NCBI GenBank assembly: GCA_905178155.1
Contig: CAJINV010000003.1
Location: 5,484,728 to 5,545,775 of the forward strand
From: Amoebophrya sp. A120
Taxonomy: Eukaryota > Protista > Dinoflagellata
Direction: 5' to 3'
Length of the DNA: 61,048 nt
The notes below the pieces were generated by a model. It was not told the origin of the DNA and searched no databases. It saw only the letters and a list, made by a program, of their open reading frames with translations. Made by a program: the position numbers and the translations under genes. Below are positions 1-54,750 of this stretch, in pieces; the first letter of the stretch is position 1; the number at the start of each line of letters is the position of its first letter.

Positions 1-1003
1 GGTAGTCATGCGCCATAAGTCATCGCCGCTGTCCGACCACCGCGCACAGCTGCTTTTTACGCCAGTGCCGTCGAGCCACTCCGCGCTCGAATTCACTTGC
101 TGCAGATCCCAGCGGGCCACGTTGGGCGAGGCGCACGGAGCGTCCTTGAACATGCCGTCCATCAACAGCCCGCTTGTGCTCACTGACCACAAGGTCACGC
201 ACGGGTTTGCGCGCGCTGCCCCACGGAACATGTTCGAGGCATCCGTTACCTGACCCACCTGCCACAATCGCACGTCCGGGTCGGCGGTGAGCGCGTCGCG
301 AAACATTTCGGTCATGTCGGTCACCTTCGCGACCTGCCAGGCGCTCACGTCCGGGTTGGCCTTCGCCACTTCGCGAAACATTCCCCGCGTCACCTGAGCG
401 CTGCTCATGTCCCACTTGGAGACGTCAAGCGTGGCGGTGCCGTACTTGAAGAACATCTCCGCAAAATTTTTGCCCCTTTCGGTGTTCCAGACCGAGACGT
501 TCAGGTTGGCGACCGCCGCGGCATCGTGGAACACGCGGGTGAAGTCGGTGACTCGCGAAACGTTCCAGTTGCCCACGTCCGGGTTCGCGGTCGCAGCTTC
601 ACTAAACATGCTCTGCAGCTCCTCCGCGCGACTCAAGTCCCACGCGGCGAGGTCGGGTTCCGCTTTCCCGGTCCGCTGGAACAGGTTCTGGAAGTGCTTG
701 CCGCTGCCAACCCGCCAGTTGGTCACAGAGGACGACCCGCTGGCGGGTATCTGCACCTTCTGCGCGCCCTGGAACGCAGCCCGGAAGTCGGTTACCTGGG
801 ACACGTCCCACTGCTCCAGGCCGGGCAACAGCGGCACCGCGGGCGCCTCCGAAAACGCGTAAGAAATATCGGTCACCCGCGAAACGTCCCAGCGGCTCAA
901 GTCATTCAAGGTGTCCAGCTTGCCCGCGTTGCGAAAGATCGCCTGCAAGTTGACAACCCTCGACCAGTGCCGCGCGAAGACGTCGTTGTCCTCACTCGTC
1001 AGG
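1..1003 (-). CDS. Exon of giant gene: BspA/DUF285 repeats, runs off window
   Basis: Reads TSEDNDVFARHWSRV...LSRWDVSRVTDISYAF...GLEQWDVSQVTDF; paralogous to exons at about 7455-8950. Confidence 0.85.
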
Positions 1004-13000: not shown

Positions 13001-16000
13001 TTTCGTAGTATGGTATGGGCGTGCTTCTTTTTGTAGGATACCCAGGTCGCGGTGCTGAGAGCGGTGAGGGTGGCCGCTCCGCGAAACATTCCGCTGATGC
13101 TGCTCACCGCTGGCGCGCCCCAGTACCTGCGCAGCAGGGACGGGCGGACCGAGTAGGAGCTGTCCCCCAGAATGGTGGCCCCGTCGTACAGGTTCTGCAA
13201 AAGCCCCGGCCCGTGGGGATCCTGGTAGCCGACGTTCAACAGCTGCGTCCACGCGCGCTTGAACGTCGTGTATTGGTTCTCCTGTCCAGATGAAGTCCTC
13301 GAGGGCTGCCACCCGGTGGTGAGTCCGCGAAATCGCACCGTCACCACGTACTCGCCGGTCGTACTTATCGCACAGAGACAGAAAGTTAACGCTTGCCATA
13401 AGCATTCCACTTGGATTAAGAACTTTTTCGCGATAGGATACGAGAAGGACGCACGGAAGATGAAGATCTGTCCTGCAGCAGCATCTCTTGAGCAGAAAGT
13501 ACTTAGTTCCAATTACTGCCTGCCCAATATTAATGAATGTCATGACACTTCTTCATTCCTACTTTACTTTGTCAATTATTCTACCCGGGGCCATCATCAT
13601 TTCCAAATGCCAACAGCAAAGACCAAAAGGCGCGCTAAAATTTTCTGCAGGATATTCTCGTAAGTATACGAAAAAGAGGTCGTCGCAGCCACCGCGGTCC
13701 CGCTGTTTGCCGTGGCGTCCCGTGTCACATTCGGGCCACTACCGGGCACGCCCCAGTAAACCGTGACGCGGCTCGCGTTGGAGGAGCTTACAGCTTCGGG
13801 GAGAAGCGGCAGCGTCACAGTGTAAGGAACGGTGTCGATCCGGAGTTTCACGCGGAAGGGGTCCTCCTCCCCGGGACAGGCAGTGTCGGCCCCGTCCGCC
13901 GTCGTGGCCAGTTCCTCTGCCGTGGGCCCCGACAGGTCGGCAATATCGTTAAAGTGTGACTGGTCAGAGCAGACTTGATTAGCCAGAGAAGTGTCGCCGG
14001 CGGAGAACACTCCGGCGCCCTGCAGTATCGTATCGGGATCAGGTCCCAAATTCACACTCGCACGGAAGTTGAGGCCCGCCAAGTTGGGCGTGGCACAGTG
14101 CGCATTGAAAAAGAGATTCTTCACAATTCTTGCAGCAGAAACGTCCCAGAGCCCCACACATGGGACTGCCACTTTTGCGCCGCTGAACATCTGTTGCATG
14201 TTCGTAACCTTGGACACGTCCCAATGCGTCACGTTCGGTCGCGCGCTGATCGTCTTTGAAAACATGAAGCTTAAGTCCACGGCATTTCCCATCGACCACT
14301 CCCCGGTGGCGGGGTCCGCCTTCCTCGCCTCGTGGAACATCGTCTTAAAATTTGAGCCCCTGCTTGTGTCCCAGGCGGAGGTGTCCGGCGTCGCTTCCAC
14401 TGTGCCACGAAACATTTCCGCGAAATTTTCTACCTGGCCGGTGTTCCAGTTCGCGACGTCCGGGTTCACTTTCCCGGCCAATTTAAACATCCCCTCTAAA
14501 GTGGTCACGGCACCGGTCTGCCACGCGCCAAGGTTGTCGTCCGGGGGAAATTCCAGCTCAGCACAATCCTGAAACATTCCTTCAATGTATTACAGTGAAA
14601 AATGGGTCACCCTGATCCGAAGTTTCCAAATGAAAACTTTTTGTCATGCATGAAAGGAGTGCCAATCTTTCTGATGCAGAGTCTAGGCGTATCTAGCATC
14701 GCTTGCATGGCAAGCGGGAGCGCCGCTCTTGCTGGGATCTTTTGCAATACAAATATTTGCTCTTCACGATTGAAAACCTGTGACGCTGATAGATGCAAGA
14801 GGGCGAGTATTCCATTTGGAAAGGTTTGCAATACAAACGCTCCCAAGTTCTGGGGTGGGGGCATTTTTCATTGTAATACAAGGCTCTCTGCGCTGGAGAC
14901 GTCCCAACTGCCGATGCCGATGATCCGCGTGAGCTTGGTCATATGAGCAGGCACAACTCCTCCTCCCCCTCATTTGAAGGGCACGAGCAGCGGCAATAGA
15001 AACAGTGACAGAGTTACCCCTAGCGCTGTTGCTGTAGCTTTTGCATTACAAGTCCAGACGCGGACTGTATTACTGTCTGAGTTGTACTCCAGTTTGTCAT
15101 GCAAGGCAGCGCTACATAGTACAAGTACTACAAGGCAAGAGCAAGACCAAGAGCTCGAGTCGCAGCTTTGCATTACAATCAAATGAGGGGGACGGGGGGC
15201 GCTGGGCGCTCTGATAGGTCATGCCAGCGAACGCGAAGCGGAACGTCGTCACCTTGCTCACGTCCCACTGCCGAGCGTCAAGCTCGGTGATGCCGGAGTC
15301 CTGCAGGAACCGACTCATGTCCGTGTCAAGGAGAAAAATCCCCTCCCCATATCAAATTCTCTGGCGCGGGATTTCAGGACACAAATGTTGAGTCCTGTCT
15401 TGCAGTAGAGGACTGCAGGCGTATGCCAGGCCTGAGGCGCCGCGAGGTTTAATTTTGGCGTAGGCAGCTAGCATGACAAATGTCTGCGCTGTAAGCCCAG
15501 CAGCATCGCCACAATCCGCCTGCAAAGTGCGGCGGGCTCCCTGGATAATGTGCCTTCTTGCAACACAGACAGGATTTGTGGGCACAAACCTCCAGCACAA
15601 ATTTTGATTTTCAGACGGATGGCGCGCTTACAATATAACTCCTATTGCTGAGCGGTGTGAGTTAAAAGTTTGCGCCGGGAACGAAAACGATCAGCCTCGG
15701 ATTTTTTTTCGCAAGTTTAAAACTTTCAGGTTCTTCGACGAGTGTGCGAAGCTCTGTGTTCAAAAATTTTCGCACAACTTTGAAAGTTTCAGGATCTTCG
15801 AAGAAAGTGCGAAGATCGGCGTCGTTTCCTTCGGTGGGTCGTTTATTGCGGAGAATTTTTCTGGCGCGAAATTTCCGCGCGCGAAATATTTTGCCGAGCC
15901 GAATTGTTTTCCCTGGCGCCTTTTTTTTGGACAAGAATATTGCGCGCCCAAAATATTTTGGCCGCCGCGGTTTTTTTGCTGAGAGCAAATTTATTTTGCC

Positions 16001-19000
16001 CGACGAAATTTCTTCGCTGGACGCAAATTTTTTGCGGCCAATTTTTTCGCGCGCGTCCATCTCTCAACTTCCATCGCAAGCCCCATCGCCCAACTCCATC
16101 GCCCGACTCTCATTGCCCAACTCTCATCGCCCCACTTCCATCGCCCAGCGCCCCACTTCCATCGCCCAACTGACATCTTCCACCTCCGCGCTTCCGACTC
16201 CCATCGCCCAACTTCCACCGCCCAACTCCCATCGCCCAACTTTCATCGCCCAACTCCCGTCGCCTAACTTCCATCGCCCAACCCCCATCGCCCGACTTTC
16301 ATCGCCCAACTTCGTTCCCGCGCGCGAAATATTTTGGCCACTAAATTTTTCTGGCGCAAAATTTCCGCGCGCGAAATATTTTGCCGAACCGAATTATTTT
16401 CCCTGGCGCCTTTTTTTTGGACAAGAATATTGCGCGCCCAAAATATTTTGGCCGCCGCGATTTTTTTGCTGGGAGCAAATTTATTTTGCCCGACGAAATT
16501 TCTTCGCTGGGCGCAAATTTTTTGCGGCCAATTTTTTCGCGCGCGTCCATCTCTCAACTTCCATCGCAAGCCCCATCGCCCAACTCCATCGCCCGACTCT
16601 CATTGCCCAACTCTCATCGCCCCACTTCCATCGCCCAGCGCCCCACTTCCATCGCCCAACTGACATCTTCCACCTCCGCGCTTCCGACTCCCATCGCCCA
16701 ACTTCCACCGCCCAACTCCCATCGCCCAACTTTCATCGCCCAACTCCCGTCGCCTAACTTCCATCGCCCAACCCCCATCGCCCGACTTTCATCGCCCAAC
16801 TTCGTTCCCGCGCGCGAAATATTTTGGCCACTAAATTTTTCGGCGCAAAATTTCCGCGCGCGAAATATTTTGGCGAGCCAAATTTTTTCCCTGAGGTAAT
16901 TTTTTTGGCCAAGGAATTTCGCGCGCGCAAAAAATTTTGGCTGTTGGAAGTTTTTTGCTGGGGGCGAGTTTTTTTTGGCCAGCGAAATTTCCTCGCTGGA
17001 GCAAAATTTTTCGCGCCCAATCTTTTCGCGCGTCCATCTCTCAACATCCATCGCAACGCCCATCGCCCAACTCCCATCGCCCAACTCCTATCGCCCAACT
17101 CCCATCGCCCAACTCCCGTCGTCGGACTCCCATCGCCCGACCCTCAGCGCCCAACTCTCATCGCCCAACTCGCATCGCCCGACTCTCATCTTCCACCTCC
17201 GCGCGCCCAACTCCCATCGCCCAACTCCCATCGCCCAACTTCTAGCGCTCAACTCCCTTCGCCTAACTCCCATCGCCCAACTCTGTTCCCGCGCGCGAAA
17301 TATTTTGGCCGCTGGAGTTTTTCCTGCTGGAAAATTTTCCGGCGCGCGAAATTCGCGAAATTTTTTGGCCGCCGGAGTTTTTTTGGGTGCGTGGAGAAAT
17401 TTTCTTGGCGCGAATTTTTGTTCGCGCGCAATATTTTGGCCAGGACATATTTTGTCCCGAAGGAAGAATTTTTTTGCGTCGAATTTTCTCGCGGGCGCGC
17501 GAAATATTTTGGCCGCCGGGATATCTTTGCTGGATCCAAAATCTTTGCGGACAACTTTTTTGCGCCCAACTCGCGTCGCCTAACTCCCGGCGCCCAACTC
17601 CCGTCGCCCAATTCCCGTCGCCCAACTCTAATTGCCGACTTTTATACGCGACGGCTTGCGCGCGCAAGTGCTTTTGGTGGGTGTGGGGGGAGGGTGGTGG
17701 GGCTCGGCGCGCAAAAAGAAAAGGCCCAAAGCCCAAAAGCATTCGGCGCTGGCTGTCGAACGCGCTCACTCTTCTCCAGGCTTTACGACATAAGCTCGCG
17801 CCTCCCCTCGCGGGCCGTGCGTCTCTCTATCGCTCTCTCTCACTTTGAACACGCTTGGCCTGCTCCGGATTGCCGCGTCTTCCCGAGGTGCGTTCTTGCG
17901 CTTGCTTTGCTTTGTTTTTCGCGCGTCGTGTTTTCTGTGTCGTTCCCTCACTCTTCGCAAAGCCATTCGGTCCCTTCCTCGGGGATTCCAAATTCATCGG
18001 CCTCGACGAGGTTCTCCAAAGTCGTGACAGCACTATCACGATAGAAGTTAATTTGTCGCCGCCACCTCGGGCGGCTTAGCATCGTGTAAACAATTCCGTG
18101 GAGGATCCAAATCGTCGCGATCGAAATAACGTACAGAATGTGTGTCAGGCGGAGGAGCCGGGGCGGTGGTGGCTGCTAAATCGCTTCTAAATTTTGCGGG
18201 ATTTTTCAAAAACGGCCTTCCCGGGGAATATGCGAACGGCGCCGCACCTCAAAAGGGGGGAGAAGAAAAAAAGCAAAGACGAGATGGGGAAGGCAGAGGC
18301 AAATGGTGCGGGCCCGAGGAAAAGAAGACATAGGAGAAACTCCGGCGCGGCCCCCTGCGCACTGCTGGTGGGGAGAAGCCCGGAGAAGCGCTGCAAAATA
18401 CGGAGAAGCAAATCATGGGGCCGATTTCGCAGACGAGATGCGCACCTGCCCCGAAGCGCTCTAAATCGCACTCTAAATGGGTATGCTAAATGGGGGCTCT
18501 AAATCGAGCCCCTCTAAATGGCATGCTAAATGGGGGCCCTAAATCAAGCCCCTCTAAATGGCATGCTAAATGAGCATGCTAAATGAGGGCTCTAAGTCGC
18601 ATGCTAAATCGCATGCTAAATCGACCCTCTAAATCGCATGCTAAACCAGGCCTCTAAGTGGCCTGCTATAGCATGCGGGAAAACACCCTGTCGGAGCACC
18701 GCGAAATTACCCAAAACCCGAAAACCTTCCCGAAAGCACTGCGCTTCGGGATTTAGCGCAATCTCGCGGGGTGCCGAAAAGGTGTTTTCCCGCAGGACGC
18801 GGCGTCACAATGTCAAGAACTTCGGGTTTGCAACGCCGGAGCGGAAGGTCCGACCAAAACAGCGACACAAGGACTGTCCGGAAAAGGACCGGACAACAAG
18901 GCGCCCAACCCCCCGACGAAAGCATGGACGAAAAGCAAAAAGGAACAACGCGCCCGGGGTCACCCAACAAAAAAACCAACGTCCCCCTCGACCAGGTGAA

Positions 19001-22000
19001 GGCCACGACACCTGGAAAAGACACCCGAGACAGGGGCGCCGGCGCCCTGGAATATGGAAAACGATACCCAAGGAAACGGCCCAAATTTTTAAATTTTAAT
19101 TTTTGCCCACACGCCAACACGTCCCCCAGGTGGTACACGGGCCCGGCGCGAGCAGTTGGCCCGGCCAGCGGGGCAGGCAACTCACCAAGCGGGGCCACCG
19201 CGGCGGCGCGGCCCGACTTTGCAAAGCCCTCCAGAAGGGGCGCGCCCCACTGCGCATGGTTTTGGGAAATCCCGGAAAATTTAGAAGATATTTAGCAGCT
19301 TTCCCCGCCCCGGAGCCCTCCGACTGATGTGTGGCAACACGGTTCGGCCCTGAAAACTGTGAATCGTGCTGACCACGCACGGCCGGACGCCGATCGCAAG
19401 CACTAACCAGCGCGACGCGGGGTCTCCGTCGCAATCTTCCTGCCAGGTGCTGTTGAGGGGGACCGGTTCTTCGCATCCGTCCACGTCGAAACGCACGTCC
19501 ACAAATGTGCGGCCGAACCCTCGAACAGTTCCGCGCGAATTTGTGGCGTACGTTTTCCCGAGTAGCCGGAGCGGACCAGTTAAGGCGATGCGCTCGCCTA
19601 AGAAGAGCTCGAGTTTTTCAGATTTGGTGGATTCTTCTTCGTCAAACCCCTCCATGAGGGGGTTTTGCAGATTGAGCAACCGCGGGCAGTAAGTTCGGCA
19701 CGTCGCACCCTTTGCACGCAGCGCCCGCGCTCGCACCGCAAGAACACGGCGCCGCTCTCGGTGGCACCCGACCACGATTTCCACGCCGTTGACTGCTTCA
19801 ATGCCGCAAGGCGCGCCGCGTATTCTTTCATCCAGCCACTGATAAGAATACTCGACGTCCTCCGCCCCCACTCTTCCAAACGTGGTCAGGTCGATTTCTT
19901 TCGTTTCACCAGTTCGCACCCGATCAAGCTCGCGGCTCCACTCTTCCTCGAAGAAGCGCGGACTGCATCCGCCGTTGTCGATGCGCACGCGCCGAAACCG
20001 CGCGAGATTTTGCACAAAGTGCGCAAATGGGCGAGAGGTAGGCCCGAGAAAAGAGTCCATGGACCGGAACACTCGCACGACGCTCGCAAGCTGATACGTG
20101 TCGCAAAAAAAGAAAACGCGCTTCCCGCCCCAAAGTTTTGCCGGCTCATCCGCACTGGCAAGATTTTGCAGCTGCTCCCAGTGCAACGCCTCCCGGCCAA
20201 TATTTTCTGCGCAGCGGGTACACCACTCCGCGTTCGCCATGGCAACCTCATCGATTACGACCCAGTCCGCGGCTCCTACGAGGGCGCGCTGCTCCTCGCT
20301 CCAGGCCGCGCTGTCCTCAAGGTCAATAGTCAACCCGCAGCCGTCATGCATCGTCTTGCCGTTGATGATGGTCGCTGCTTGCCCCGTTGCGGCAAGGATC
20401 ACGATGATGAGTTTCCTTTCGTACGCTATAAGCTCCAGAGCGCGAATTATCTTGGCCTTGCCCGCTCCTGCCGGTTCGTTGCAAGTCATCAGGTCTGCCG
20501 CGCCTTCGTCTCCTGGGTCTTCGTCGACGATTTGGTAGAGGGCAGCCTTCTGGCCCGGCATCAGCTCCAAGGCGTTTGGGTTGGCGCCGTGTAGCAAATC
20601 AGCCAGCTCGCGCGCGTGTTCCTGGCGCTTTTCCCTGTTACGGGCGTGGTAACATTTGATATAGTGGCGCCGCTGCTCCAGCTCGCTACCAAATTGCTGC
20701 AGGTGCGCCCCTGCCTCTGGCAGCGTCATTCGAATGATGTGCCTGTCTACCCCATCGCGCTCGAGCCTTTTGGCGATGACATCTAGCGGGATGCCATGCT
20801 CTGCCACAAGCCAGTCCCATGCTGCTCGCCGGGCTTCGGTGTCGAAGTTCAGAAAATACTTGACGAACAACGTAAGCAGTCCACTCTGCGGCCGGAGCTG
20901 GTGCACTTCGTCGAGGAAGTTGCGAAAAGCAAAACGCTTCATATGGGCGGGATAGTTCCACCGTGCCATGCTTGCTTCAGGGTCGTCGAAATACTCCTGA
21001 ACGTCCGCGCGGTTCACTAAATGCAATCCGCACAACCAAAGCAGGTAAGTGTCGTCGTGGTGGTCTGCACGAAGATGGAAGACATTGCGCGCGGGGTCAA
21101 GATTCGCGAGCATTTTGTCGGTCTGCTGGAGCGCCAGACTCGCGCCCGCGATTGCCACCCGGTTCGCAACCAAATAACAGCGAAAGGCCTGCAGCTGGGT
21201 GAGCTCTGTTACGACGCCGAGCCGGTTGGGGGCCGTGAACTCCTCTTCGTGCAGGTGCTCATGCCATTGGGCATACACCTCAACAAAGCGCCGCGCCCCG
21301 GTGCTCCTGGTGTTCAACGTGAAACGCTCGAGAGACCACGCGGCGTACTTTTCCGGGCGGTCCAGCCAGTTATTGACCGCGTCGGCCGCCGTCGCGTTAC
21401 CAATGAAGAGGGGCGCGTCCTCGATTCGCTTGCGGTCCACTATCACCGTCACCAGCCGTCCCCTCGGGAGGTGCACGCCGAATCGCGACACCCCATACAA
21501 ATCCGCCGCGGCTTCCGAAGCTGGCAAGACTTGCGCGGAATGCAGCGTCTTTATCTCATCGAACCCGCCTTCCTGCTCGAACATTTGCCAAGAACCTTGA
21601 TCCGAATCACGGCCGAGCGGCTTGACTTTCTTAATCGGGTACGTGATCACATAGCGAATTTTGTTCGCCCCACCGACTCCATTTGCGTGCGTGTGCGCCA
21701 AAAACCGACAGAAAGTCTTCTTATCGATCCCGACACACATTTCGTCGCCCTCTTTCGTTTCGATCTGCAGGAAACCCTTTTCATCGAGATACGTTTCGGC
21801 GACAAGCGCAGCCGGGCAAAGTTTCTTACACTGAACGCGCCCCGGCACCCGGCAGGCATCCGTGTGATGGTGATAGAAAACACGATCGGCAGTCTCGCGC
21901 CAGCGCCCACATTCTTCAGGAATCCAGTCCCGGCTTCGCTCGATAAATTCATCAAACGCCGTGGCAGTCAGGAGCGGGTCGGCAAACCAGGTAAGGCTGT

Positions 22001-25000
22001 GCCGGTGTGGCCGGCCCTGGGTTGGCTGCGGTTCGTCGCCCCAAGTAATCGCTGCCGTTTCGCCGTACAGACTCTCCACCTCTTCGACATGCTTGCGCAT
22101 TTTCGCCTGGAACGCGCGCACGCTCGGGCACGGCTCATCGAGAACGGGGCAAGATTTCCACGGCCGCCGCTCCGCTTCTGCTCGCATTTCTACCATGTCG
22201 TCGCCCTGCGTGGCCGTTGTCATCAGGTCAGCAGCCCCAAGCTTGCGCATGATCGCAAACGCCTTGCACCGCTGCGCGTTGACTTCTTCTAATGAGCCCG
22301 GAATGTTGGCGGGAAGGCGTTTCGGCAGTGCGCCGTCGTGGCTCGCCGCGTAGTGTGCCTGATACGCCAAGACGAGGCGCTGCCGTTTGTTCAAGGCGTA
22401 GCGGAGCAGAAGCACCTGGTGCAAATCATACAACACGGGCGCCGTCATTTCGGGGCGGGCAAAATACTGCCGCAGAAAACTTTCGAGCGATACGCCCTGC
22501 GGTAGCGACAATCCGTTGACAAACAAAAGCGGGAACTCAACCCCTAGCAGCGACTCCCACAATTTGGTCAATTCCTCACGCTTGATGTGCATGCGCCCCG
22601 CGTCCAAGTCGTTTTCTCGCTTCGTAGGGAAGAAAATCTCCGCCCCGTTTCGCATGTGCGCAGGCCCAAGGCGGCAAGTCACTCCACAGACGCCCCCGGC
22701 ATCCACCCAGCTCCAAACCAAGGCCCGCGACCGGGTCCGGATCTAATAAATAACGCCGAAACTGCGGATGGTTGTACACCGGGTGCCCGCCGTCGGGGCG
22801 CGCCAGTAGCTCAAACATGGCGAGCGCGTCCCGTTTGTCTGCCGCGGCCGGTCGCGGTCGCCCTTGGCCTAAAGAGACTGCGACGCTAATTCCCAAATTT
22901 TCGGCGAGGTAATTCGGACACTACAATCCCGCCCCGAAAGCAAACAACTGCGCAGCATGCGGAAAACGGTCGCTCGGCCGCCCCATGTACTTGCGCGCGC
23001 GCCCCGTATGCTGCCGCACGTTTCCAGGCTCAAATTGATACCGCATCATCGAGACGGCGTCGCTGGCGCGGGCGTACCGCGTTGCCGCATTTTCGACGCC
23101 ATCCCATTCGTTCGGGTAATCCTCGCGCCCTGCTATCAAATCGCTCCAGAATTCCTCCGACAAAGCTTCGGAGCCGTTTTTGCAGAGCGTGCAAGTTAAC
23201 TGCTCCCCCGAGTGCTCGCAGAAAGTCGCCTCTGTATTTTCGTACACCCGAACCGCGCACCACTTACAGGGCACAGCAGCCGCCGCCATTTCTTCGAAGA
23301 GGTTCGGCGGCCGGGGCGTTTGAAATTCTGGCGCCGCGAAGGCATTCGAGCGGATGGCGCACGGCCTGCAGAGATTGTCGCAACGAGCCGGCCCGCGCTG
23401 CGCCTTTCATAAACAAATCACATTTCATGTGCAATTTTTAGTCGATCGCTTTCGAACCAAAATTTTTGAGCCGGAAAATTTGTATTGCACACTGAACAAG
23501 CAACTTTAGGACCAGCAATTTCTACTGCACAGTGGAACTGCAATTTTTGAACACCGAACTTTCGACATTTTGAACTTTCAGCTTCTTTTTGTCACTTCGT
23601 GCATCATCACATTATTTGATTTCAGGACATGATCATCACATTATAACTTCATGCGAAAACTAATTTCGAGCGACGTTCTTCACCACTTCCCACCCCATCT
23701 CTTCCTTTTTTCTTTCCCCCTTCGCAAACTCGTTTACCCTCCCCTTGCACGACATAAGCTGTCCCCTTGTAATTTATGGGAAGGGGCGATTTTTCATGAC
23801 AGTAGTCCGTTACGAGCGACCAGTCTGTTTTGGCGAACGCGGAGGTGGCGTTTATGGTAACCACCCCCGAGGTGCTATCCTAAGCAAAAACGTCCCCACC
23901 CCACAGTCAAGCTGGGAATCTAGTAGCAACACAAGTCTTCAAGTTTTGGGAGCTGTGCATGACAAGTTTCCCTCTGCAGTGTAGTGCTGGTCGGCAAGGA
24001 AAGCCGCATGAGAAAGCCATTTATTTCTCATCCTGTTTACAGCATTACAAATTTCAAAATACGATACCATTGGAAAAAATGCCTCTTATGGCGCTGCGCA
24101 TTGCAAATGTTCCTGTCAACCTTCTTGCCCATTTGCATGACAACTCTGGAGTGGGGACGTTTTTACTCAGGATAGGTGCCGCTGAGGAGATTTGGAAGTA
24201 CGTACCCGTAGGAGGAGCCAAAAGATTCTACGCTGCGCAGCGCGTCGCGCCAGTTTTGCAGGTAGGCAGCGGTTATTAAATGCAAAAATGTCTGGGTCTG
24301 GAAGTGAAGAGTCATGCTGTTTGTGCACGACACAGAAGGTGGTCTGGCATGGAAGCTCTAGCATCACAGGTTTCGAGAAGCTTCCGCAATGCCGGATCCG
24401 CATGACAAATCCCCCATTTTGGTGACAGAAATAAGTGGGCAGCTTTTGCTACCTATGCATGAGAGATTTTTCTGTGTTCTGAAATGCGCATCACAAGTTG
24501 CATCCTTCCAACCCAGACATTTTCGCAGTGGATAGCGTTGAAGCCGGCGGGCGCGGCGACCGTGGGATCCTGCCACCCCAGAAGACGGCCCCGAATCGTC
24601 ACCGCGTACTATTAAAGTGAAAAAAGCCCCCACACCATATCGAGTGACGCATGCTGTATTTCAGTAAGTACACAAATCCAATTTGTGTTGCAGCAGAGCA
24701 CTGCACGCAGCTCGCAAGCCTAGGTAGGGGCCTCTTGGTGTAGGCGCCTAGCATGGTAGACGGCTGCCCTGTAGTAGACCCTACAGCGTTATAAATCGCC
24801 TGCATAACGTGCCGGGCAGCCTGGACATGGCAAGCCTTCTTGCAAGACAGACGCGATTTGTGGTCACAAATCTGCATCACAAGTTTTCAGATGGGTGCGC
24901 TTTCAATATGGGGAGGGGGGATTTTTCCTTACGATACGTACTCCCTATCAAATACAAGTCGTGTGGCTGGGTCTGCAAAAGTGCATGATCAACGTTGGCG

Positions 25001-28000
25001 ATGCACATTTTTTTTGGATGACCCATGATGTCTGTGAAGATGTCAGCATAGATAAAAATTCTTTCAGAGTTTCTTGATGCTTATCGTTATCCCGCAAGAG
25101 GAACAGTGCCGTCTCCGCATAGTAAAAACTGAAGCCCTCATCTTCTTGCTGCTGGAGCTGGTCATGATGCAAGAATATATTTAAAGATTAATTTTGTTAG
25201 AATCACAGCTAAAAATGATCACAGCACGACAAGTTGCAGCATTCTTCCAGACCCAGACAGAATATTTGCACTTTGTACTCCCCAGCGTTGGCGTACGTGT
25301 AGTTGAACGCGGAGAATCGCGAGAGGTACACGTTGGGAGGCGTGTCGTCGGGGGTATCACCGAACTGCACCCACGGCGCGCCGGTCCAGAAGAGCTCCCC
25401 CAGCTCGGTAGAAGACGAGGAGGCGCCCGCCGCGCTCGCGTCGCCCCAAAACACGGTGAAATCGTTGTCGTGGAACGGCTCGAGCCCGTTTTCCAGGTAC
25501 CCGCTGACCCAGTTGGTTGGCACGTTTAGGGGCAGCTGCACGGTGGTGCCAGGCGAGGTTATAACCTGCTCAGGTGTTACAATCTCAATAAACGTTACAA
25601 TAGAATCTGGAATTTGTCTTGCAAGAAGTGCATGATCTACCACCCTACTCCCACAGGATTCCGCATGACAAGTTTTGGAGTCCCAGTCCGCACTACAATC
25701 TGGCGAAATTTGTATTGCAGAAAGTGGAATGCTGTCCGAGTCTGTCGTGTTGATCATGCAAGACAAATCTCAGATTCTATTGTAACGTTTGAGATTGTAA
25801 CGCTTGAGCAGGTCATAGAGGTGATCTCGATTTTCACCCGGAAGGCGTCGTCCTCGGCGCACGCGATCTGGTCGGTCGCCAGCGAACAGACCGCGTCGTC
25901 TATTACAGTAAAAAATGCCCCGACCCCGGAAGTTGCAAACGTTTCTCATGCATAAGGTTTTCAAATGAAGAGCTAGAGCTTTTTATCTATGCATGAAAGC
26001 ACTGCGAGTCTTTCTGATGCAAAATCTAGACTGCGCAAGGTATCTTTTTTTGCATAACAGATCCGCCTGCTGTTGGGCTCCTTTGCAACGCCAATTTGAG
26101 CTATTCAGCATGGAGTAAGAGTCTCTGTGATGCTGATATATGCAAGAAGGCGGGGAATGTTTCCATTGGAAAGATTTGCATATACAAATACTGCCGAGTG
26201 CTGGGCGGGAGGGGGCATTTTTCACTGTAATATCGTCCAGAATGTCCGTCCCCAGCGCGGAGCGAATCGGACGCTGAGACTCGTTCAGGCCCCCGTACCG
26301 GAACCCATATTCGGCGGTGGTCTCGTCGTAGCTCGTGATGGCCACGAAGTCCCTCATCCGCGACCACCAACTGTTCACGTTGGGGGTAGCACAAGAGAGA
26401 CTCCGAAACATGTCCCCGAAGTCGGAGGCGTTGAAGCTGACGTTCCAGTGGGAAACACAGGGCGACGCGGACGTCGCGCCGCTGAACATTTCCGAAAACC
26501 TGAGCCCTTCTTCCACCCGCCACCCGCGGACGTCAGGGTTGGCGCTCGTCGCGTCCTTGAACATGCGGGAGAAGTCGGTTCCGCTGGAAACGTCCCAACG
26601 TTGCGTGTCGGGGTCAGCCAAGGTTGCGCCCTCGAACATGCTCGAGAAATCGGCGCCGCTGGAAACGTCCCAATACTGCGTGTCGGGGTCAGCCGAGGTT
26701 GCGCCCTCGAACATGCGGCTGAAGTTCTTCCCGCGGGACACGTCCCAGTTGCCCACGATGGGGTTGGACTGGTTAGCCCCCAAGAACATCGCTCCGAAAT
26801 CCGTCGCGCTTCCCACCGTCCAGTTCCTGAGGTCCACCACCATCTGCGGCGAGGACGAGCCGGAGCCCCCACTGAGCGCGCTGGACAATTGCCGCCGCCC
26901 GCCTCCGTCCGCGGGCCGTCCCGTGAGGCCCACGCAACCGTCAAACATCCCCGCGAAGCTTGCCACCTTGGCCGTGTCCCAACCGTACACGTTGGGATTC
27001 GCGTTTGCGGCCCCCGCAAAGACGCCCGTCATGTCCTGGACATTGGAAGTGTCCCACGAGGCGACCGCGTCGTCCAAGTTCAGATTTGCCATGCCAGAGA
27101 ACATCCCGGACAGCGATTTCGCCTTGGAGGTGTCCCAGGTCTCCAGACCGACCAGCTCGGTGATCGCCGTGCCGCCTTCGAACATTTTCTCGAAGCTGGT
27201 GATCTGGCTCGTCACCGAGGCGAGCGCAGACAGGTCCAGCGCGCCGGAGAGTTTGGCGTTGCCTTGAAACGCCCCCGCCATGGACCCGGACGCCGCGAAG
27301 CTGGTCGCCAGCTCGGTCAGCACCTCGGGCGTCACCTCTTCGATCTCACTGAGGGGCGGCCGCGGCTGCGTGGCCTTGCTCCGACCCCGCGAGAGCACGG
27401 TGGTTTGCATCGTTTTGTAATTGGTTATTTTGGCCTGGTCACTCTCCGCCAGTTGGGAAATCTCCTCGTCCGTCAAAAATGTCGACCGAAACCGCCCACG
27501 CACGACGACCTGGCGGGTGCTGTCCAACGCACTGGCGTCATACGTGTGCTCCACCGTCAACGGGCTCTGCAGCGGTCGCCAATACTTCAACAGATTTCCG
27601 ACAACGTCCGTCGCCAGTGTGAACAGTTGGACACCGCACACGGAGATTCTTCCCTTTCCGTTCCGGTGATTGGTCCCGAACCTGATCTGATTAGTCGATT
27701 TCCCCTGCAGATCATGAACCGTGCCGGTCCCTGCCGTTTGGCCGTAGTTGATGTTTAAGTTTACGGCTCCGTATCCCACGAGTGTGTACCTCATGTAACT
27801 TATGTCACTACTATAGCCTACCCAAAAGATCATCTTGGTCAGGGAGTACGTCCCCCCCAGATTAAGAAAGAATTTGCCATACTGATAGTCCCTGCTCTGG
27901 TAGCAGGAGGTGACGCTCGCGTGCTCAGACGCGAAGGAAAGCTGCTCTTCCATGTTTGCGTGGTTCGGATCGAAGCGCAACGGGTTATCCTTCCCCAAAT

Positions 28001-31000
28001 GGGCCGCGTAGGACTCTCGATGATAAGTGGTCATCTGCGATAGCGGCAGCTCCACCTCGGGGGCATCGTACAAGGGGACCTCGCGGGTGTCGTCCTCGTC
28101 CCAGAAAAACTGCAGGTTTGGTTCTTCCGTGTCTGCCACCGGGAAGCGGACCGTGCGTTCCTCGCTGGTCGTTCCAGTAGCGGGAAGCTTGAGTAGGGCC
28201 CGGTAGGGGGTGTCGCTGGGACAGTGCAGGTCGCGGCCCGGGCCGTCGATCGCGCCAAACAGGTAGTCCAGGTTCGCACATTCCGTCGACAACCGCCCCG
28301 CACCCTCCGCCCAGCGGTCGACGATCAGACCAGCCCAGGCTTTTGCATCCGGCTCGTCGAAGATGGCTCCCATGGTGCCCCCGCTGGAATACACCTTTTG
28401 CAAGGGCCATCCGGCGAGGTTTGGGGTGGCGCAGGGGGCGCCGCGAAACATGGAATTCATCAAAATCCCGTGCGCTGGCAGGGCATCCATGTTCTGTCCG
28501 GTGATGGAATTCGACCGTGAGAAAACCAGCGCGATCGTCTCGCCGAGCGTGCGCGCCACAGCTTCACGCGCGGCACTGCCGACAGTTGTATTCTCGGGGA
28601 CATACATCATGGACCCAGCCACGCGCCAATCCGTTACGCACGGCGCCAGCTGCTTCGCAAGGTTGAACGCGTGGCGAAAATCGGTCCCCCGGGACACGTC
28701 CCACGCGGTCACATTGGCGCCCCACCTGAGGCTCTCTGCACCACGGAACATGGAGTTAAAAGAGCCCACACCCGAGACATTCCAGTTGTCCACCCCGGGC
28801 TGAACGATATCGAAAGGAGAAACTCCCCCTCCCCATATCAAAGCGAGGCTTCTGATGGTGGACTTCCACACACAAATCAGATTTGTCTTGCAGTTGAGCA
28901 CCGCAGGCATATGCCGAGCCTGAGTCGAGAGGTTTTGACGTAGGCGCCCGCGCCTAGCATGGCGCCAAATGTCTATGCTGTAAGCCCAACAGCATCACAA
29001 ACCGCCTGCATAAAGAGGCGGACTCTCTGGAGTTGCCTCCTTGCAAGACAGACAGGATCTGTCTCTGTGGTCACAAACCTACATATACAAATTTGCAACC
29101 GGATGCGTTTTCAGTACGGGGAGGGGGGATGTTTCCTCACAATAGACGACGCGCAAGATTTCGTTTCCGGCCACGTCCGGGTCTGCGACCAGCCCGGATT
29201 CCCCCAGCATCGTGAGCTTCTTGCAGTCCCGGAACATGCCGGCAAGCGATGCAACGCCAGATACATCCCACGTATGCAGCCCGCGCACACTTGTTAGCTC
29301 CTGACAGCCCCTGAAAACATTTTCCACCTGTCGGAGAGGGGCACAAGAACTTCTAGTACCGGGGCCAGGGACAGAAGCAGAGGCGGCCGCTCCCGCTCCA
29401 CCAAGGAATCCTTGTCCTTGGTGGGTTTTTGCAGCTGAGCGCGGCTCTAAAGGCGGCAAAAAGCCAACGTCTACGGCAGTCAGCTTGGTGGCCCCTGCGA
29501 ACATGCTTCGGAGCGAGTACTGGCATGGCGACGCTGCGAGGCTTGGGAGCGGCGCCGGACCTCCTCCTTGCTGGCTCGCAGTCACGGTTTCGTGGGCAGT
29601 CGACAGCTCTTGCCGAAGACGCGTAAAGGCGGCATCTGTGGCGACAAACGTTTCTAGGTGTTGGCTCCCCCGGAACAGGCCCGGCACCAGCGCGCGGCGA
29701 CTGCGGCCCAGCGCAAGCACTTCTGACCACGGCGAGTTCCGCGCAGAACTGGAGCCGTCCGGGGTGGCAAAGGAGGCACCAAGCCACCCTGCGATTTTAC
29801 CTCGAATCGTCACATGGTACGTCCCGGCGCTCCGAAACACGTGGCGAAGCTGCGGCTTTTCGCATCGTAGAGTGCGGGGGTCAAGCAGAAACCCGTCGTT
29901 GCACTTGCGGCAAGCGTTTGCGCGCCTCTTCAGCGAGACCCGTGCGCACGCCGGGAAAATGGCAGGTTCCCCGTTGGTGCACTGACATTCGCTACCCGCG
30001 TGGTAAATGGTGTATGCTGTACACGCCCCGGCCGGACACGGTAGAATCCTCGCCTTCTCTGGACAGTGCCCGACCGTCGCAGGCGAACCATCGACAATCG
30101 TGGCATGGAAGCTGCTCCCGGCCGCCGGGCAGGAGGTGGAAAGGGTGACGTCCGTGCTGCTTCCGAACGCTGCGGTGTACGATTCTGCATTGGGTTCGGG
30201 CCGACCACTGCTCGGCTCAAGCTCGATCTTTCCCGCAGTCGTCGCTGTACCATCGTGGTTGGCCTTGGAGACGAGCCAACCGTCCGCGGCATCTTCCTGC
30301 AGGGTAGTTGACCAATAGACGTCGCCACTACTTTGCACGAAGCCCCAGGTAACCACGTTACCCTTCGCAGGGAGCACCAGCTCGCGCACACTCAAGCCCG
30401 TCTAACCTGTGGAAAAACGTCCCCGCCTCAGAGTTGTCACGCAAATCTGCTTGCTTAGAATCAATGCTTCTCATGCGGAGCACCATGAGAAGCACTTTCT
30501 ATATTGAAGTTGTGTTTTGTTGTTTGTGATGCTTAAACCGACCGAAATTAGTACAAACGCGCCTTGCATGTTCCCCTTCCGCAGATGGTCGGGCGTCCAA
30601 TGCACGGAGTCAGACGGACCACCAGGGCCATCGTCATCATTCTTTGGGGTTTGTGATCGTGATGCTCGAATCAGCATAATGTTAGTATACATTTGTAATC
30701 CTGCACCTGCTGAAGACAAGTAGGTAAACAGGATTTTTTTGTTATGCGCAACAGGCAAGAAAGCTGAGTGATTTGTCTACTACTTAGCAGCTTGCCCATC
30801 GTGACAGACTCTGGAGTGGGGACGTTTTTGGTCAGGATACCGTCCCCTCCTCAACCATCTCGCCCAGGGCCCGCGCCGAGGCCGCGAACCGAACCTGGTC
30901 GCTCTCCTCCTCGGGCTCGGTGTAGTCCGCTACATCCGACACGAACTCTTGGCCGCCGACGGTGATCCTGCGTTCCGTAGGTGGCGGACCTCCTATGGCG

Positions 31001-34000
31001 CGGTACCGCCGCGCGTAGTCGGCCGAGATGGTCCGCACGTCCTCGACTTCCCAGCCGTATCCGGTGTGGTTCAGCTTTTGCGCGGCACCGGCCGTGTACG
31101 CGGTTTGGTAGTCCACCCGGTCCCGGGGCAGAAGCGCGAGCTTCGCTTCGACGCGGCTGAGGGTGAAGTCCTCTACGAGCTTTTTCCCGGGGTAGTACCC
31201 GATACGGGTGAAGCGGCGCACGGCTCCGCGGTCCAAGCGAAGCGGCCCCGCCGCCTGCGCGGCAGACGACGGGGAAGCCCCGGCCTTGCGGAGCTGCAGG
31301 TGGGAGGATCCAAACAAAGCCGTGGCCCGATCCAAAACCCCAGATACCGTGCCCAAATCGGCGTCCGCAAATGACCACGCGAACGTGTGCCGTTCCGGCT
31401 CGTGGTCCGCCTGTATGCCCCACGTCGTGGTCAGTGCGTTGGCCGCGCCGTCCGTTTCCCGCTGCTTCAGATCGGAATCATCCTTCAACGTCCACCTACC
31501 CGAACTCGTGTGGTCCGTGAAAATTTTCAGGCTCGGCTGCCCAGCGTCATAGCTGTGATCTTGCTCGGACCAGGTCTCCCCCGGTTCGTACCGGAGAAAA
31601 AAGTGGGCGCTCGACCCGACGAAAGATTGGGAAAACGTGCTCTCCCAGTGTACTAAATGGTCGACGTCGTCCGGCACATCGTAGAAAAGAAAATCGCTGC
31701 CCCATTCGCTGGCAGAATGTGCGTACGCAGGATCCGCATCGGCAGCAACGGGCGCTTTGAATGCGTTGCAGACGAAGTTGTGGTCCCGCGAGGCGCCCGC
31801 TTGCTGCTGCGATATGCTTTCTTGGATACCCGCCATGGCATTGCAGAGTCCCCCCGAGTAAGCCGCGTTAGAGACCCATCCCGTGACATCGGTGGCAATC
31901 TTTAGATCACACTGAGACGTGGCGGTCGAGTGCCCATAGCTGGTGCAACGAGTATGAGCCTCGCACCGCCTCCGGCATTCTTCCGGGGTCGCGACGGAAG
32001 AAATTGAAATGTCCTGGGCGCCATCGGTAGTGGCGGTTTCGCCGGTTCTCATTTCGCAATTCTTGCGAGCCTGGACCATCGTCATCGCGTCCGCTTCGGT
32101 CGCGAGAGCTGCCGCCAGCACAACCGAACCGGCCTCCTCTTCAGTCGAACGCTGTGCCGGCAGCACGCGGACCGCGCCTTCTACTATCCAGCAAAAAACA
32201 CCCATCCCCAGATGGGTGCATCATCATCATCATCATCATGTAGTGCACATGACAAAGAAAACTGCCCTTGAACTTGATGCATTTTTTGCATGACAAATTG
32301 GATCATGGGGATGGGTGTTTTTTCCTGGATATCCACGGGCTTGATTCGACTCCGGCTGCTGCGGCCGCGGCCGTCCTCGTGGAGCTCGGGGTCTCCGTAG
32401 GCCCGCGCCGCGGCTTCGGCGAGACTAGGCGGAATGGCACAGGAGGCGCCTTGAAAGCCTTCGTGTCCCGTCGTGCCTTGCGCATTGCTCGCTTGGTCGT
32501 GCAGCTGGGGAGACACGAGCTGGCACGTGTTCGTAGCCGCCTCATGTTGCCAGCCGGTGCAGCTGGGGTGCCGCTCGCATGCCGCTTGGCAATCTGGCGC
32601 CCCGGGCGTCGTCCACGATGCCAAACTGGAGGGCATGTGCGCCGCGTCTCCGTGGTAGGCAAAGGTGGCCACGCTGGGCCCGCAGGTCTTGCGCGCGGCG
32701 GGGTGCGGGTTGCGAGCGGAAACTAACCCCGGACACGGATTGGACCCATCGAACGTATCAAAGGCAAATATGTCTGGGTCTGGAAAGTTGGAATCTGTCA
32801 TGCTAGCTCTACATTTTTCCTGGGAGATCTGTATTGCATAACCAACAAAAGTGGCAGCCATGTTTGTCATGCAAAAACGCAGATTCTCATGCGGACCACC
32901 TATGAGAAAGCTTTCATCTGGAAAGTTGTCATACTGGGCTGCCTTCGACAGTGTTTCCATCATCCACATTGTAGCATCACACGTTTCCAGACCCAGACAT
33001 ATTTGCAATGCATAGAACAGCGGCTGATGCATCTGAGAGAGTGGAATGTAGTTGTGATTCACCTTGAAGTCCGCTACGTAATCCTTCGGGTAGAGAAGTC
33101 GGTCCACGACTTGGAGGCTTGGCTGCGCGGTCCTTTCGGTCGAAGGGACCCGCTCCGCGCGCGCGCGGTGCGTCACTGTGATGCGCACCAAATCTGCGTC
33201 CTCGCGAAGGCCCTTCCTCGCGTCGGGGGTCGCCGTGGCAGTCGTTGCCCAGTTATCCTGGTCCGCGTGCTGGGGCATCCCAGCCTCATCGGCAACAGAC
33301 GGGGGCAGTTGACTCGCGCGCGCGGGCGCGTGTCGGACCGCGTACTTGGCGAGGTGCTGGGTAGAAGATGGGTCGGAATTCGTGGCAGACGTGGCAGCCT
33401 CGACGTGACCAAGCAGAAGGTCGTCTTCATCCTCGTGTGCGATTACAAAGCTGCCGCTCGAGACTGGAACATCATGCTCAAGCCCATCGATGGTGAGTGG
33501 GACCGCCCCATTTTGCAGCTCGCTGGGATGAAGCCGCATCGGCGTCGGAAGGTTGTGCCTCATGACTTCGAACACGTTTCCGTAGGGTGCAGCGCTGATC
33601 GCATCTGCAGATATCGCTGGTGGTCCAGGAGGTGGTCCTATTTCAACCTTGTAACTACCACCTGGGGCGCTCGCACTGCCCGGCCCAGCGTTGTTCGTAA
33701 TCACCCGGTCGGCAAGCGCAAACACGTTGTGCCCCAGGGCGCCCGAGAAGTCACCCGCTAGCTCTGCAACGTTGTGGGTCGCACGTGAGGTGGCATCCAG
33801 CCGGACATCCGGGGACCCGGTGCGGCGCTCCTCCGCCAGGACATCTGCAGACGTGCCCACGCTGGTAAATTCATCGCCCCAATAAACGGTAAACGCGTTG
33901 CTTGGGAGAGAAAAATCGATGGGGAGAGCAACTTCCTGATCGGCAACCGTTGTGGTAACAATCGCACGAAAGGGAGTGTCATACGGACACTGTAGGTCTC

Positions 34001-37000
34001 GTCCAACCCCGCCGTCGCTCGTGGTATCATACAACTCCTCCAGCCCCAAGCAGTCCGATAGCCGCCCGGCATTTCGGGCCCAGTGGTGGGCCCCCACCGT
34101 CTCTGGAGCCGGAGGACGACGAGACAGCTATGGGAGTGCGCAACTCCCCCTTCCCCTCATTTGTAACCCAAAAATGCCAAATCCCGTCTGAGTGGACTAT
34201 AACTTTTGGCTGTGCTTGCATGACAAGCTCTGCGAACCCAAACCGTATATTGCTCCGTTTTTAATGCAGAGACTGCAATTTTGAAGTCGTGGTTTCTGTT
34301 GCTAGATGAAATGCACTCCAGATGAGGGCGAGGAGGAGTTGTGCACTTTCATAACAGCATGCCCAGGTGTATAGTGATTCCATTGCCGTAGCATCCCATG
34401 TAAGAGTGGCCAGCAGCGGGTGTGGCGCCCGGGCTTGCTATATCATCAAACTGCCCTGGCTCGCAAGGGTTCTCTAACCACATCGCCACGTCCGAGATCC
34501 ACGTGCGCTCGTTCACACGGAGGCGCTGAAAACAAAAATTGTTGCTTCCTTCGTACGTTAGAGCGACCGAGGCCACGGCTGCAGTCGGGACTTGCAGTGC
34601 GGTAAAAGTGTGCTGTGCTATGGCGCCGTTAGTAGCAGGCGTCGCCACGCTTCCGCTCGCCTCCTCGCCAGTAGTGGTTTTCACAAGTAGGCCAATGTTC
34701 CCAACGCCGCCAGCAACCGGGTGGCTACAACTGTCCAGCGTCACGGTCACTGGTGTTGCTGCAGGCGCAGTCTGCTCCACTACGTCTTGCGGGCTGCGAA
34801 TCATGAAAGGTAGCGGATAGCGAAAGGGATCGCCAAGGAGCCACAATTCTTCGCCGAGTAGTTCGAGACCTGGGCCTAATCTGATACTCGACAGACAAAG
34901 GGTGTCGGCGTCAGTCTGTGAAAAAGTCAGGTGCAGGAGGTGCGCCCCGCCACCTCTTCGCAACGGCACCGGAGTGGCGAAGTTTTGCTGCTGTACCTCT
35001 CCCGGGGACTGCAGCGTGAAGGTCAGGGTGTGTTCCTCTAAGGTTTCGGCCCGCAGTGTCACCGTGACCGGGTTCGCGCTACCGCTGTCGCTGTTAAACT
35101 CATTGCTACAAGTTTGAAGCACGACCGTCGTCACGAAGTCGACGTACTCTGCCTCGGACCAGTGCTCGTGGTGGGCGTCGCGACCGTGAAGATCGTGGTC
35201 CCGGTCCTGGATTGGGTCGTTGACCTCCTCGAGAAACCGCTGCTGAAACTGCCCGCCCCAGTGGAATACGTTGGGGGTCGCGCACGTCGCTCCATCAAAC
35301 ATGTAGCTGATGTCCAAGCGGTTCCGCGGCTGCGCTGGTTCGTCCCCACCTGTAGTTGATGTTAGTACTTTGGCAATGTTGAGCTTCTGACTCTGGGGCG
35401 CCCGGATTGCGTCGGGTACGGTGAGCGGCACACATCGCTCCAACCGAACGGCTGTGTCCGTCGTGTAACACCAAATTGTTTCCTGGCGGGTCGGATTTCG
35501 GCAGTAGTTGTGGTCTCCCAGGCCCTGCAATCCCGCGTTTATCCAAGAAAAAAACGCCATCGCAATCACATTTAGGAGGCTTTGCATCAGAAATTTGTCT
35601 TGCATGACAAATTTTTCTTGTATTGCAAAAAAACAAAGGGAAAAAATCGCCTATAACTCTATGACTGTGATGCTTTTTTGCGCATGACGAAAATTTTTGT
35701 ACTACTGCAAAAATGTGCAAAAGTGATTGTGATGGTGTTTTTTTCTTGAATAGCGTTGCGATTAGTGGTCGTCGACGCTTCGTGATTGTACTCGCTCAAG
35801 TCGTGTGTGTTCGGAGTTTGTGTCCTCCAGTTCTGGCACGTTTTTCCCGAGATGGTGCGGCTCTGGCAGCCGCGGTAAAACCGGCTTTCGAGGCCCGGGA
35901 GGAGCGTCTCGTCGCAGTTCAGGGAAGTGCCGGCGGGAGGCAACAACTCCCCGCTCACCTGGGTCTCCGTCGCGACAGTCATCGGAGGTACTATTCCGGC
36001 CCCGCGCAGCGACTCGGAGCCCACGTCCCACCACGTGACACAGGGGTTGATGCGCGCGCTATCAAAAGGAAAAATCCCCCCTCCCCATACCGAAAAGGTA
36101 TACTTTCGGAAATTTCTTGCGATGCTGATTTGTGGCCACACATCGCCTCTGTCTTGCAAAAAGGCAAATCCAGAAGGCCTTCCGCATTATACCGGCGGTT
36201 TGTGATGCTGTTGGGCCTACAGCATGGACTTTTGTCATGCTGAGCGCCTAGGCCAAAACCTCTCCCACTCAGGCTTGATGTGGGCCGGCAGTCCTCTACT
36301 GCAAGACAGAGCTGATTTGTGACCACGAATCTGCATCACAGATTTCCGTTTTGATATGAGGAGGGGGGATTTTTCCTTTTGATACGCGCAGCGCTGAAAC
36401 ATCCCCCGCATGTCCTCCACGACGGGGAACCGCCACGCGGTCACGTTCAGCGCGCGGAGCACCACAGCATCGCGGAACATGCCACTGGTGTTACGGCAGG
36501 ACTCGAGGTTCCACGTCTCAATCCCACTCACCGAGGTGAGGCTCGTGCAGCCGTCAAACATCTGCGCTACCGTCTTCACGTTGCCGGTCTCCCAGCGCTC
36601 CAGGCCCCGCACGGTACGCAACTTAGTACAGCCGCGAAACAAGTTAGACAGGTCCGTTACTGCTCCGATACCACTTGAGAGCGGGGCCAGGTCCACCTCG
36701 GTCAGCTCCACGAAGTTCTCGAAAAGTCTATCCTGAGCAAAAACGTCGCCACCCTAGGGCTCTTGCAATGCAAATCTGCATGCCAACAAAGCTTCTCACG
36801 CGGAGCCCCATGAGAAGCTTTTTCCAGTCGTGTTTTGGAACTTGTGATGCCAGAATCAGCGCTATATGCTAGATCTGTGACGCTGCTAAACTAGCTCGAC
36901 AGAATTACACCAAGAGGGCAAACTTGTCATGCGAAACCACCAACGCTGGTTGATTTGTATAGCAGATTTCCCATCTTGACTATGGGGTGCTGGGGACGTT

Positions 37001-52290: not shown

Positions 52291-52919
52291 TCGAGCAAGA
52301 AAAAGTTTCGGGTCACACCATAAAATTAATTAAATAATTACAAAAAATGAAATTAAACGCAGCAATTCATTATTTACCACAGCACGCCCCCGATGGTACG
52401 GCGGGCCTTGTCGGCGCCTCCGGGCCGCAGCGCTTTGCCGGCCTGGCAAAACCAGGGGCCGGCGATTTCGCGCAAAATCCATGCGGCTGGTCAGACGCTT
52501 CCACGCCGCCCCAGGACCAGCAACAAGTCTGGGCGCCGGCCAGCGCCTTGCCGCTTCCGGGCGTCCTACGCGCGTAGGGAGCCCGGAAAAGCCCCGCGGC
52601 CTTCTTTTTTCGGGCGCCCTACGTACAGGCGGGCGGGGCCGGCGGACCAAAAAGTCGCGGCAACCTTCGCCCGGCGGTAGCTTAGCAGCTGTCCCCCGAG
52701 CCCGAGCCAACCGGCCAACCCGCTCTGTGATCTTCGTCACGGCGAACTTTTTCGCCAAAATCGCTGGGCGACAATTTCGTGGCCCGTCCCCACACCTGGC
52801 CAGACGCCTCCGCCCCAGCCATGAAGTCAGCCACAAATCCGGACGACGGGAACCCTGTCGCCGTTTCCGGGCGTTCTACGGGCGTAGGGGGCCCGGAAAC
52901 GCTCGGCGGCGTTCCGGGT

Positions 52920-54610: not shown

Positions 54611-54750
54611 GCGCAGGATAAAAAGAAAGAACCACGCGGCCCATCATAATAATGACGAGCAACGCTCTATGCTAAATAACAACGCTTATTCTACCAAGTC
54701 AATAAGTCAGCTACTAGGTCCATCTAATTAATTAGTTAGTCTATGACTAC

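Follow-up and report, generated by a model that had tools for sequence, protein, structure and literature searches.

Two adjacent introner elements with overlapping target duplications in a giant gene of Amoebophrya sp. A120, and their likely separate removal around a four-nucleotide exon

Introner elements of the dinoflagellate Amoebophrya sp. A120 carry, according to the published accounts, inverted repeats that start with TAT and continue through seven less conserved bases into A's, and they are bordered by direct repeats of 3-5 nt (PMC7789003). More than 60% of the introns in this organism are described there as non-canonical and validated by RNA sequencing (RNA-seq), with border positions that are unknown and with no U1 small nuclear RNA (snRNA) detected (PMC7789003), and single genes can hold tens of introner introns (PMC12130899). 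Here we describe two such elements, designated A and B, that lie 9 bp apart in contig CAJINV010000003.1 (assembly GCA_905178155.1), within a window that comprises the whole analysed stretch of 61,048 nucleotides (contig positions 5,484,728 to 5,545,775). The two elements interrupt one giant gene on the minus strand, their target duplications share one base, and it is likely that they are removed separately around a nominal 4-nt exon. Coordinates below are window positions, and ‘sense’ denotes the minus-strand direction of the gene.

Judging from their anatomy, A and B are introner elements of the A120 type, which supports the identity proposed for them in a preliminary description of the locus. 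Both have inverted repeats of 8-20 nt or more, direct repeats at their borders, related elements in the window and non-GT-AG borders at net 0 (removal of the element together with five flanking bases); the published end motif is found in part for A. The elements resemble those of Farhat et al., 2021 (PMC7789003) and Gozashti et al., 2025 (PMC12130899), as far as the consulted sections of these sources go, in the TAT, seven-base and A-run structure of the inverted ends and in border repeats of 5 nt, and also in a length of about 250-300 nt, a GC content below that of exons, the existence of many families, the presence of tens per gene and the lack of a GT-AG rule. No difference in kind is apparent, and pairs with overlapping duplications, a fixed cut register and a route that adds three nucleotides are absent from those same sections. 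A literature search, whose coverage excluded most subscription papers, returned no paper on neighbouring Amoebophrya introners with duplications that overlap or with a micro-exon between them.

The nonconventional introns of euglenids (Nomura et al., 2025; PMC12501133) likewise have paired ends and borders that slide within direct repeats. The distance of their cuts from a paired terminal motif is measured, strictly at the donor and more loosely at the acceptor. This tested precedent provides the closest working analogy to the geometry that we propose below. However, the lineage is unrelated, and the euglenid motif (N3-CDG...CHG-N5-6 plus a purine exon start) differs from the TAT...ATA seen here; CDG at intron positions 4-6 is absent from the starts of introns A and B in the favoured register. 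Introners of Micromonas, Aureococcus, Florenciella and Polarella (PMC9860276; bioRxiv 2020.10.14.339549; PMC3879977) are also non-autonomous elements with terminal inverted repeats and target duplications that become introns, and nested or merged as well as codon-adding cases are reported among them. Those introners carry or co-opt spliceosomal dinucleotides, which constrains their targets, whereas the targets in the present gene are arbitrary and GT-AG borders at net 0 can be formed by just 2 of 43 elements, neither of them A or B (0 of 6 registers for each). These and later element statistics cover 43 of the gene’s 45 elements, leaving out a duplicated copy and one element with a decayed end. 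Whereas introners of the Micromonas and Aureococcus type have GT-AG or GC-AG borders that leave mRNA length unchanged, GT-AG is available to A and B solely with the addition of 3 nt. A twintron or stwintron was considered and ruled out for the pair, A and B being side by side and not nested.

On the plus strand, the locus reads CGTAC (24605-24609), element B (24610-24936), a 9-nt spacer (24937-24945), element A (24946-25277) and CTCCC (25278-25282), all features being assigned to the minus strand. Element B is 327 nt long (GC 0.50) with TAT...ATA inverted ends, and element A is 332 nt long (GC 0.40) with inverted ends of which the one at the sense 5′ end is decayed (TAC for TAT). CTCCC is the copy of A’s target duplication that lies upstream in sense, and CGTAC is the downstream copy of B’s. 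The spacer consists of the downstream copy for A (24941-24945) and the upstream copy for B (24937-24941), with base 24941 common to both. Both 5-nt duplications are perfect, and the boundaries and the overlap that had been claimed for this pair were confirmed in the sequence.

The arithmetic of the preliminary description is borne out as well: the two outer duplication copies alone can supply the 9 nt, and a 4-nt exon follows for any cut register common to A and B. This exon is predicted at 24938-24941 in the register that we favour (cuts 1 nt before TA and 4 nt after TA), or at 24939-24942 or 24937-24940 in the neighbouring registers. Excision of A and B, each with one copy, yields the peptide quoted earlier, and its claimed match to the other PKD-like modules of the protein holds in that the same three residues lead from an aromatic residue to G-x-Y in five of five insert-free modules. 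The motif resembles that of PKD modules. Retention of A, or of A and B, introduces a stop 30 codons past the anchor motif, retention of B alone introduces one 11 codons past it, and keeping both outer duplication copies whole breaks the frame.

Sequence comparison of the elements in the window gave no similarity between A and B at E <= 1e-3, and they are assigned on this basis to different, unrelated families. Relatives of B, at about 69-70% identity, occur at 1443-1760, 28808-29144, 36060-36384 and 46456-46798. The relatives of A, which match it only at the termini, occur at 1004-1255, 7725-7976, 8210-8490, 9623-10001, 41574-41892 and 50821-51096. B carries TAT, seven variable bases and at least three A’s at both ends; A follows this pattern in part, having TAC at its sense 5′ end and just two A’s after TAT and seven bases at the other. 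Rfam gave no matches on 24200-25900. The repeated nature of such elements is also seen in a DNA-like run (X1), whose bins with element ends, from elements other than A and B, have summed depths of 10^3-10^5, compared with about 20 for exons.

The gene that hosts these elements spans 1-52220 on the minus strand and is open at both ends. Forty-five insertion sites lie between 1004 and 51096, and when each insert is excised with five flanking bases, a single frame runs from 52220 to 1, with 9,134 stop-free codons and a coding length of 27,403 nt that contains no stop or frameshift (four registers were tried, and one decayed end was placed by hand). By contrast, nets of +5, +4, +1 or -1 nt per element leave no frame longer than 949 codons (39 elements). 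The elements are therefore not chance features, since net 0 gives one long frame and the other nets, which are not multiples of three, shatter it. Elements start with TAT in 41 of 43 cases and end with ATA in 39, AAA occupies positions 11-13 in 33, the median length is 288 nt and the median GC is 0.46. Thirty of the 43 duplications are perfect, nine have one mismatch and four have more than one; as 13 have thus decayed, the inserts are old, while the frame is still open. An apparent gene end at 23649 was rejected, as it is the start of an 8.5-kb insert described below.

The encoded protein contains DUF285 repeats, kringle domains and PKD-like modules by domain scan, although the PKD label should be read in the light of two of four pieces matching Pfam PKD models, both below the gathering score. 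This giant protein is probably surface-exposed. No annotated or transcript-derived copy of it was found at E <= 0.001, and further protein searches returned five distant DUF285 proteins (three of them named bacterial), one spurious repeat protein and no close or Amoebophrya homologue. One metagenome scan gave 0 matches, and another gave 39 pattern hits of which none was confirmed. No cognate transposase turned up among 13 window pieces in a general domain scan, which was not a dedicated test.

Another reading is that the elements are not spliced at this locus, either because they are cut from the DNA in an expressed nucleus or because the gene is a recently silenced copy. The load on a single transcript would indeed be heavy, given that the gene also carries inserts of 8.5 kb and 3.1 kb and an interruption upstream of 52222. 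Nevertheless, 27,403 coding nucleotides persist without a stop or frameshift even though 13 of 43 duplications have decayed, and in A120, elements that fit this description have been validated as introns by RNA-seq (PMC7789003). The DNA-like run X1 contains the elements, and of its 176 joints for positions 1-10950, the 15 listed include no join at an empty site, a comparison that lies outside the pair itself. Absence of splicing at this locus thus appears distinctly unlikely to us.

We consider it probable that A and B, both non-coding, are each removed from the pre-mRNA separately at net 0. Each would have inserted by DNA cut-and-paste with formation of a 5-nt duplication, and each resulting intron would be defined by its own terminal hairpin. 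Each element would leave together with one duplication’s worth of flank, so that the ancestral codons are restored, with cuts measured from the TA ends, the donor most likely lying 1-2 nt ahead of the 5′ TA and the acceptor 4-3 nt past the 3′ TA. The two would leave one after the other, in either order. With the first removed, an ordinary, long exon would flank the second element, and recognition of a micro-exon would not be needed.

Alternatively, A, the spacer and B could leave as one 669-nt composite intron, the outer duplication copies supplying all nine bases with no exon between. The preliminary description had treated this route as equally open. The composite is in frame and gives the same product as separate removal, the TA(T)...(A)TA ends are common to all families, the outermost 15 nt of A’s 5′ end and B’s 3′ end pair at -5.3 kcal/mol, a local hairpin formed by the inner ends can conceal the spacer, and ‘merged’ introners are mentioned for Micromonas (PMC3879977). 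Against it stands the geometry of the cuts, which would have to take a total of 1 flank base, as opposed to 5 (or 2) for a single element. A composite with the usual geometry loses 4 bases and one with GT-AG borders loses 1, and both products stop a few codons later.

Predicted folding also bears on the two routes. Over 40-nt ends, the folding ensemble at 37 °C (about the same at 20 °C) gives 24.3 expected pairs between A’s own ends and 25.8 between those of B, and 0.0 for both the outer and the inner cross pairs. Duplexes of 30-nt ends reach -23.0 and -23.6 kcal/mol for the elements’ own ends, as opposed to -8.1 for the outer ends, which is no better than random cross pairs (median -11.1; 38 elements, one taken as 32184-32340 rather than 32185-32331). 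The ‘non-matching ends’ earlier ascribed to the composite are therefore a fair description beyond about 15 nt, but not of the outermost 15 nt, where the outer ends pair as well as own ends do. B as a whole folds better than its shuffles (z -2.51). Since the composite needs a cut geometry of no single element and lacks predicted outer-end pairing, separate removal is the likely route and the composite a highly improbable one. The two in-frame routes give the same mRNA and are separable solely by intermediates or excised products; a differing mRNA junction, once offered as the refuting observation, would accordingly not tell them apart.

A further route, missing from the two listed in the preliminary description, uses conventional dinucleotides. 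Both duplications start and end with G in sense and the elements start and end with TA, so in-frame GT-AG borders exist for each. A spliceosome using the GT one base before and the AG one base after each element would remove introns of 334 and 329 nt and leave a 7-nt exon (24938-24944, minus strand), which stays in frame and adds two codons, one Glu and one Tyr (one codon if a single element is so treated). Such sites are present, and all products with 3 added nucleotides (+3) are in frame; the same option exists in 6 of 43 elements. Of A120 GT-AG introns, 15% have direct and inverted repeats (PMC7789003), where net-0 GT-AG is expected for about 4% of elements, and codon-adding introners are known elsewhere (PMC9860276). 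On the other hand, all five insert-free sister modules have the shorter spacing, and a +3 cut at element 1946-2307, where the duplication is badly decayed, puts a stop in frame. We regard this use of GT-AG borders at the pair as unlikely.

The published border frequencies bear on the same question. Addition of three nucleotides for all elements was tried as a general rule and rejected: eight of the nine commonest A120 borders fit NT...AN at first, but net 0 combined with aligner sliding explains the table better. In simulation, net 0 beat pure +3 on the border table of PMC7789003 in 24 of 24 settings. It also did so in 23 of 24 settings on counts pooled over six large families (1,817 introns), taken from among 19 of the 58 A120 rows in the supplement of PMC12130899. 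With sliding towards GT/AG, net 0 reproduces the table, including GT-CG, GT-TG, GC-AG, GA-AG and GG-AG, none of which a general +3 rule predicts and each of which stands at 0.8-2.1% in the table of PMC7789003. A mixture with up to about a quarter of +3 events fits the published table better in most settings, although the fitted share ranges from 0 to 0.27 depending on assumptions. Another arrangement, which we hold to be doubtful, would place an invariant donor 1 nt ahead of the 5′ TA and offer two acceptors separated by three bases, at 1 or 4 nt past the 3′ TA; for a duplication that begins and ends with G, as those of both A and B do, the near acceptor would make a GT-AG intron and add a codon.

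For separate removal at net 0, the position of the cuts can be approached through duplications that have decayed. Four of these have alignable sister modules, and three (1946, 5798 and 14588) favour the upstream copy as coding at positions 2-3. In two further decayed duplications, visual inspection alone gives preference to the upstream copy (Leu rather than Pro), and no information comes from the others. One element whose empty site is present in a duplicate, ending near 12628, has lost the two initial bases of the downstream copy. These comparisons give a weak indication of cuts that precede the 5′ TA by 1-2 nt and follow the 3′ TA by 4-3 nt. In line with this register, the A120 paper mentions four bases of the repeat as lying upstream of the 5′ end (PMC7789003). 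In the register with cuts at 1 and 4 nt, introns A and B would both start with GT and the exon would be 24938-24941. Separately, the terminal ATA has been lost at the sense 3′ end (AAG, ATG, ACA or deleted) with the frame restorable at 46864-47331, 48049-48272, 15324-23804 and 12628-13040, which suggests, from sequence comparison, weaker constraint on the 3′ terminal bases than on the 5′ TA.

Several observations weigh against separate removal as proposed. The pairing of the outermost 15 nt noted above for the composite falls between that of the elements’ own ends (-6.4 and -4.0 kcal/mol), A as a whole folds no better than its shuffles (z 0.27), and one fold with other flanks joins the inner ends as a local hairpin around the spacer (-8.3 kcal/mol alone). 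The register evidence comprises few cases judged partly by eye, the duplication at 11305-11593 fits the downstream copy slightly better, and purines predominate at the first base of the duplications (29 of 43; p = 0.03, uncorrected), a bias that may indicate a different register. The simulations used a BLAT-like sliding rule, which is not that of the table’s own aligner, and 13 rounded published values. Splicing at the pair itself is inferred from the intact frame and the literature, as exon cover of the gene was found in none of six RNA or RNA-like runs. Three RNA runs (X3, X4 and X5) gave 3, 1 and 10 reads on 22500-33500, all partial and without exon cover, which says nothing on expression. 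RNA-like contig runs X6 (22500-33500 and 1-10950), X7 and X8 (both 1-10950) matched element sequence and no exon, save one 151-nt piece in X8.

The preliminary description, which presents the pair as a natural test of the mechanism, overlooks that such a pair is to be expected by chance. For 45 random sites in 27,403 coding nucleotides, the probability that the shortest spacing is at most 4 nt is 0.28. The 44 spacings fit an exponential distribution (Kolmogorov-Smirnov p = 0.57), the next shortest being 39 nt. Because the spacings are compatible with random insertion, the adjacency needs no special explanation, and A and B are likely independent insertions that by coincidence hit sites 4 coding bases from each other. 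Given the 29,850-43,267 elements and 46.9 Mb of coding DNA reported for A120 (PMC7789003), 76-160 such pairs (spacing 1-4) are expected genome-wide under random insertion. At other loci, contigs of the DNA-like run contain element ends 25-40 letters apart. The pair is an ordinary case of an already known, mechanistically unexplained intron type.

Other inserts in the window are larger or more complex. The insert at 15324-23804 is 8,481 nt long, with B-family ends, a perfect CGGAC duplication, a Helitron-like Rep/PIF1 frame of 1,153 codons (19284-22742) and 14-nt satellite arrays at about 15850-17600; with its removal the frame is restored, and the insert would accordingly represent a non-canonical intron of 8.5 kb. 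A second insert, of 3,130 nt at 2613-5742, has the ends of the 25560-25817 family, a perfect AAGTT duplication and an OTU protease-like frame (4840-5607), and offers a lead, from its sequence, towards cargo or a longer parent element. True nesting is found at 45683-46382, where two further elements, at 46028-46364 and about 45710-45991, lie within an outer B-like one, whose terminal repeat itself contains one of the two; this case is twintron-like and may impose an order of removal. Within 10980-15100, a module is tandemly duplicated (2,061 nt), with one element in both copies (11305-11593 and 13366-13654) and those at about 12628-13040 and 14588-14878 in one copy only, placing empty and filled sites side by side. 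Upstream of the gene’s open 5′ end, the segment 52222-61048 starts with an element end at 52222, continues with tandem repeats of about 93-106 nt at 52900-54640, and includes a 271-nt direct repeat at 54751 and 60778 (99% identical) and a piece of Copia-type reverse transcriptase at 58426-59427. It is probably a long terminal repeat (LTR) retrotransposon inside another expanded element.

Amoebophrya excises introns by the tens of thousands that lack GT-AG borders, and apparently does so in the absence of U1 snRNA; the mechanism is an open problem according to PMC7789003, and direct repeats hide the true cut sites. The pair is not unique as a reporter of these events, and decayed duplications locate the cut register more directly. 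It is nevertheless a compact one, since separate removal, cross-pairing (-4 nt), a composite with GT-AG borders (-1 nt) and the addition of 3 or 6 nt differ in junction length, and forms that retain a single element would show the order of removal. If the arrangement with two acceptors, which we doubt, were true, the pair would give rise to as many as four isoforms, all in frame, around an exon of 4 or 7 nt, and introner invasion would insert residues into thousands of proteins and help to explain their fast evolution.

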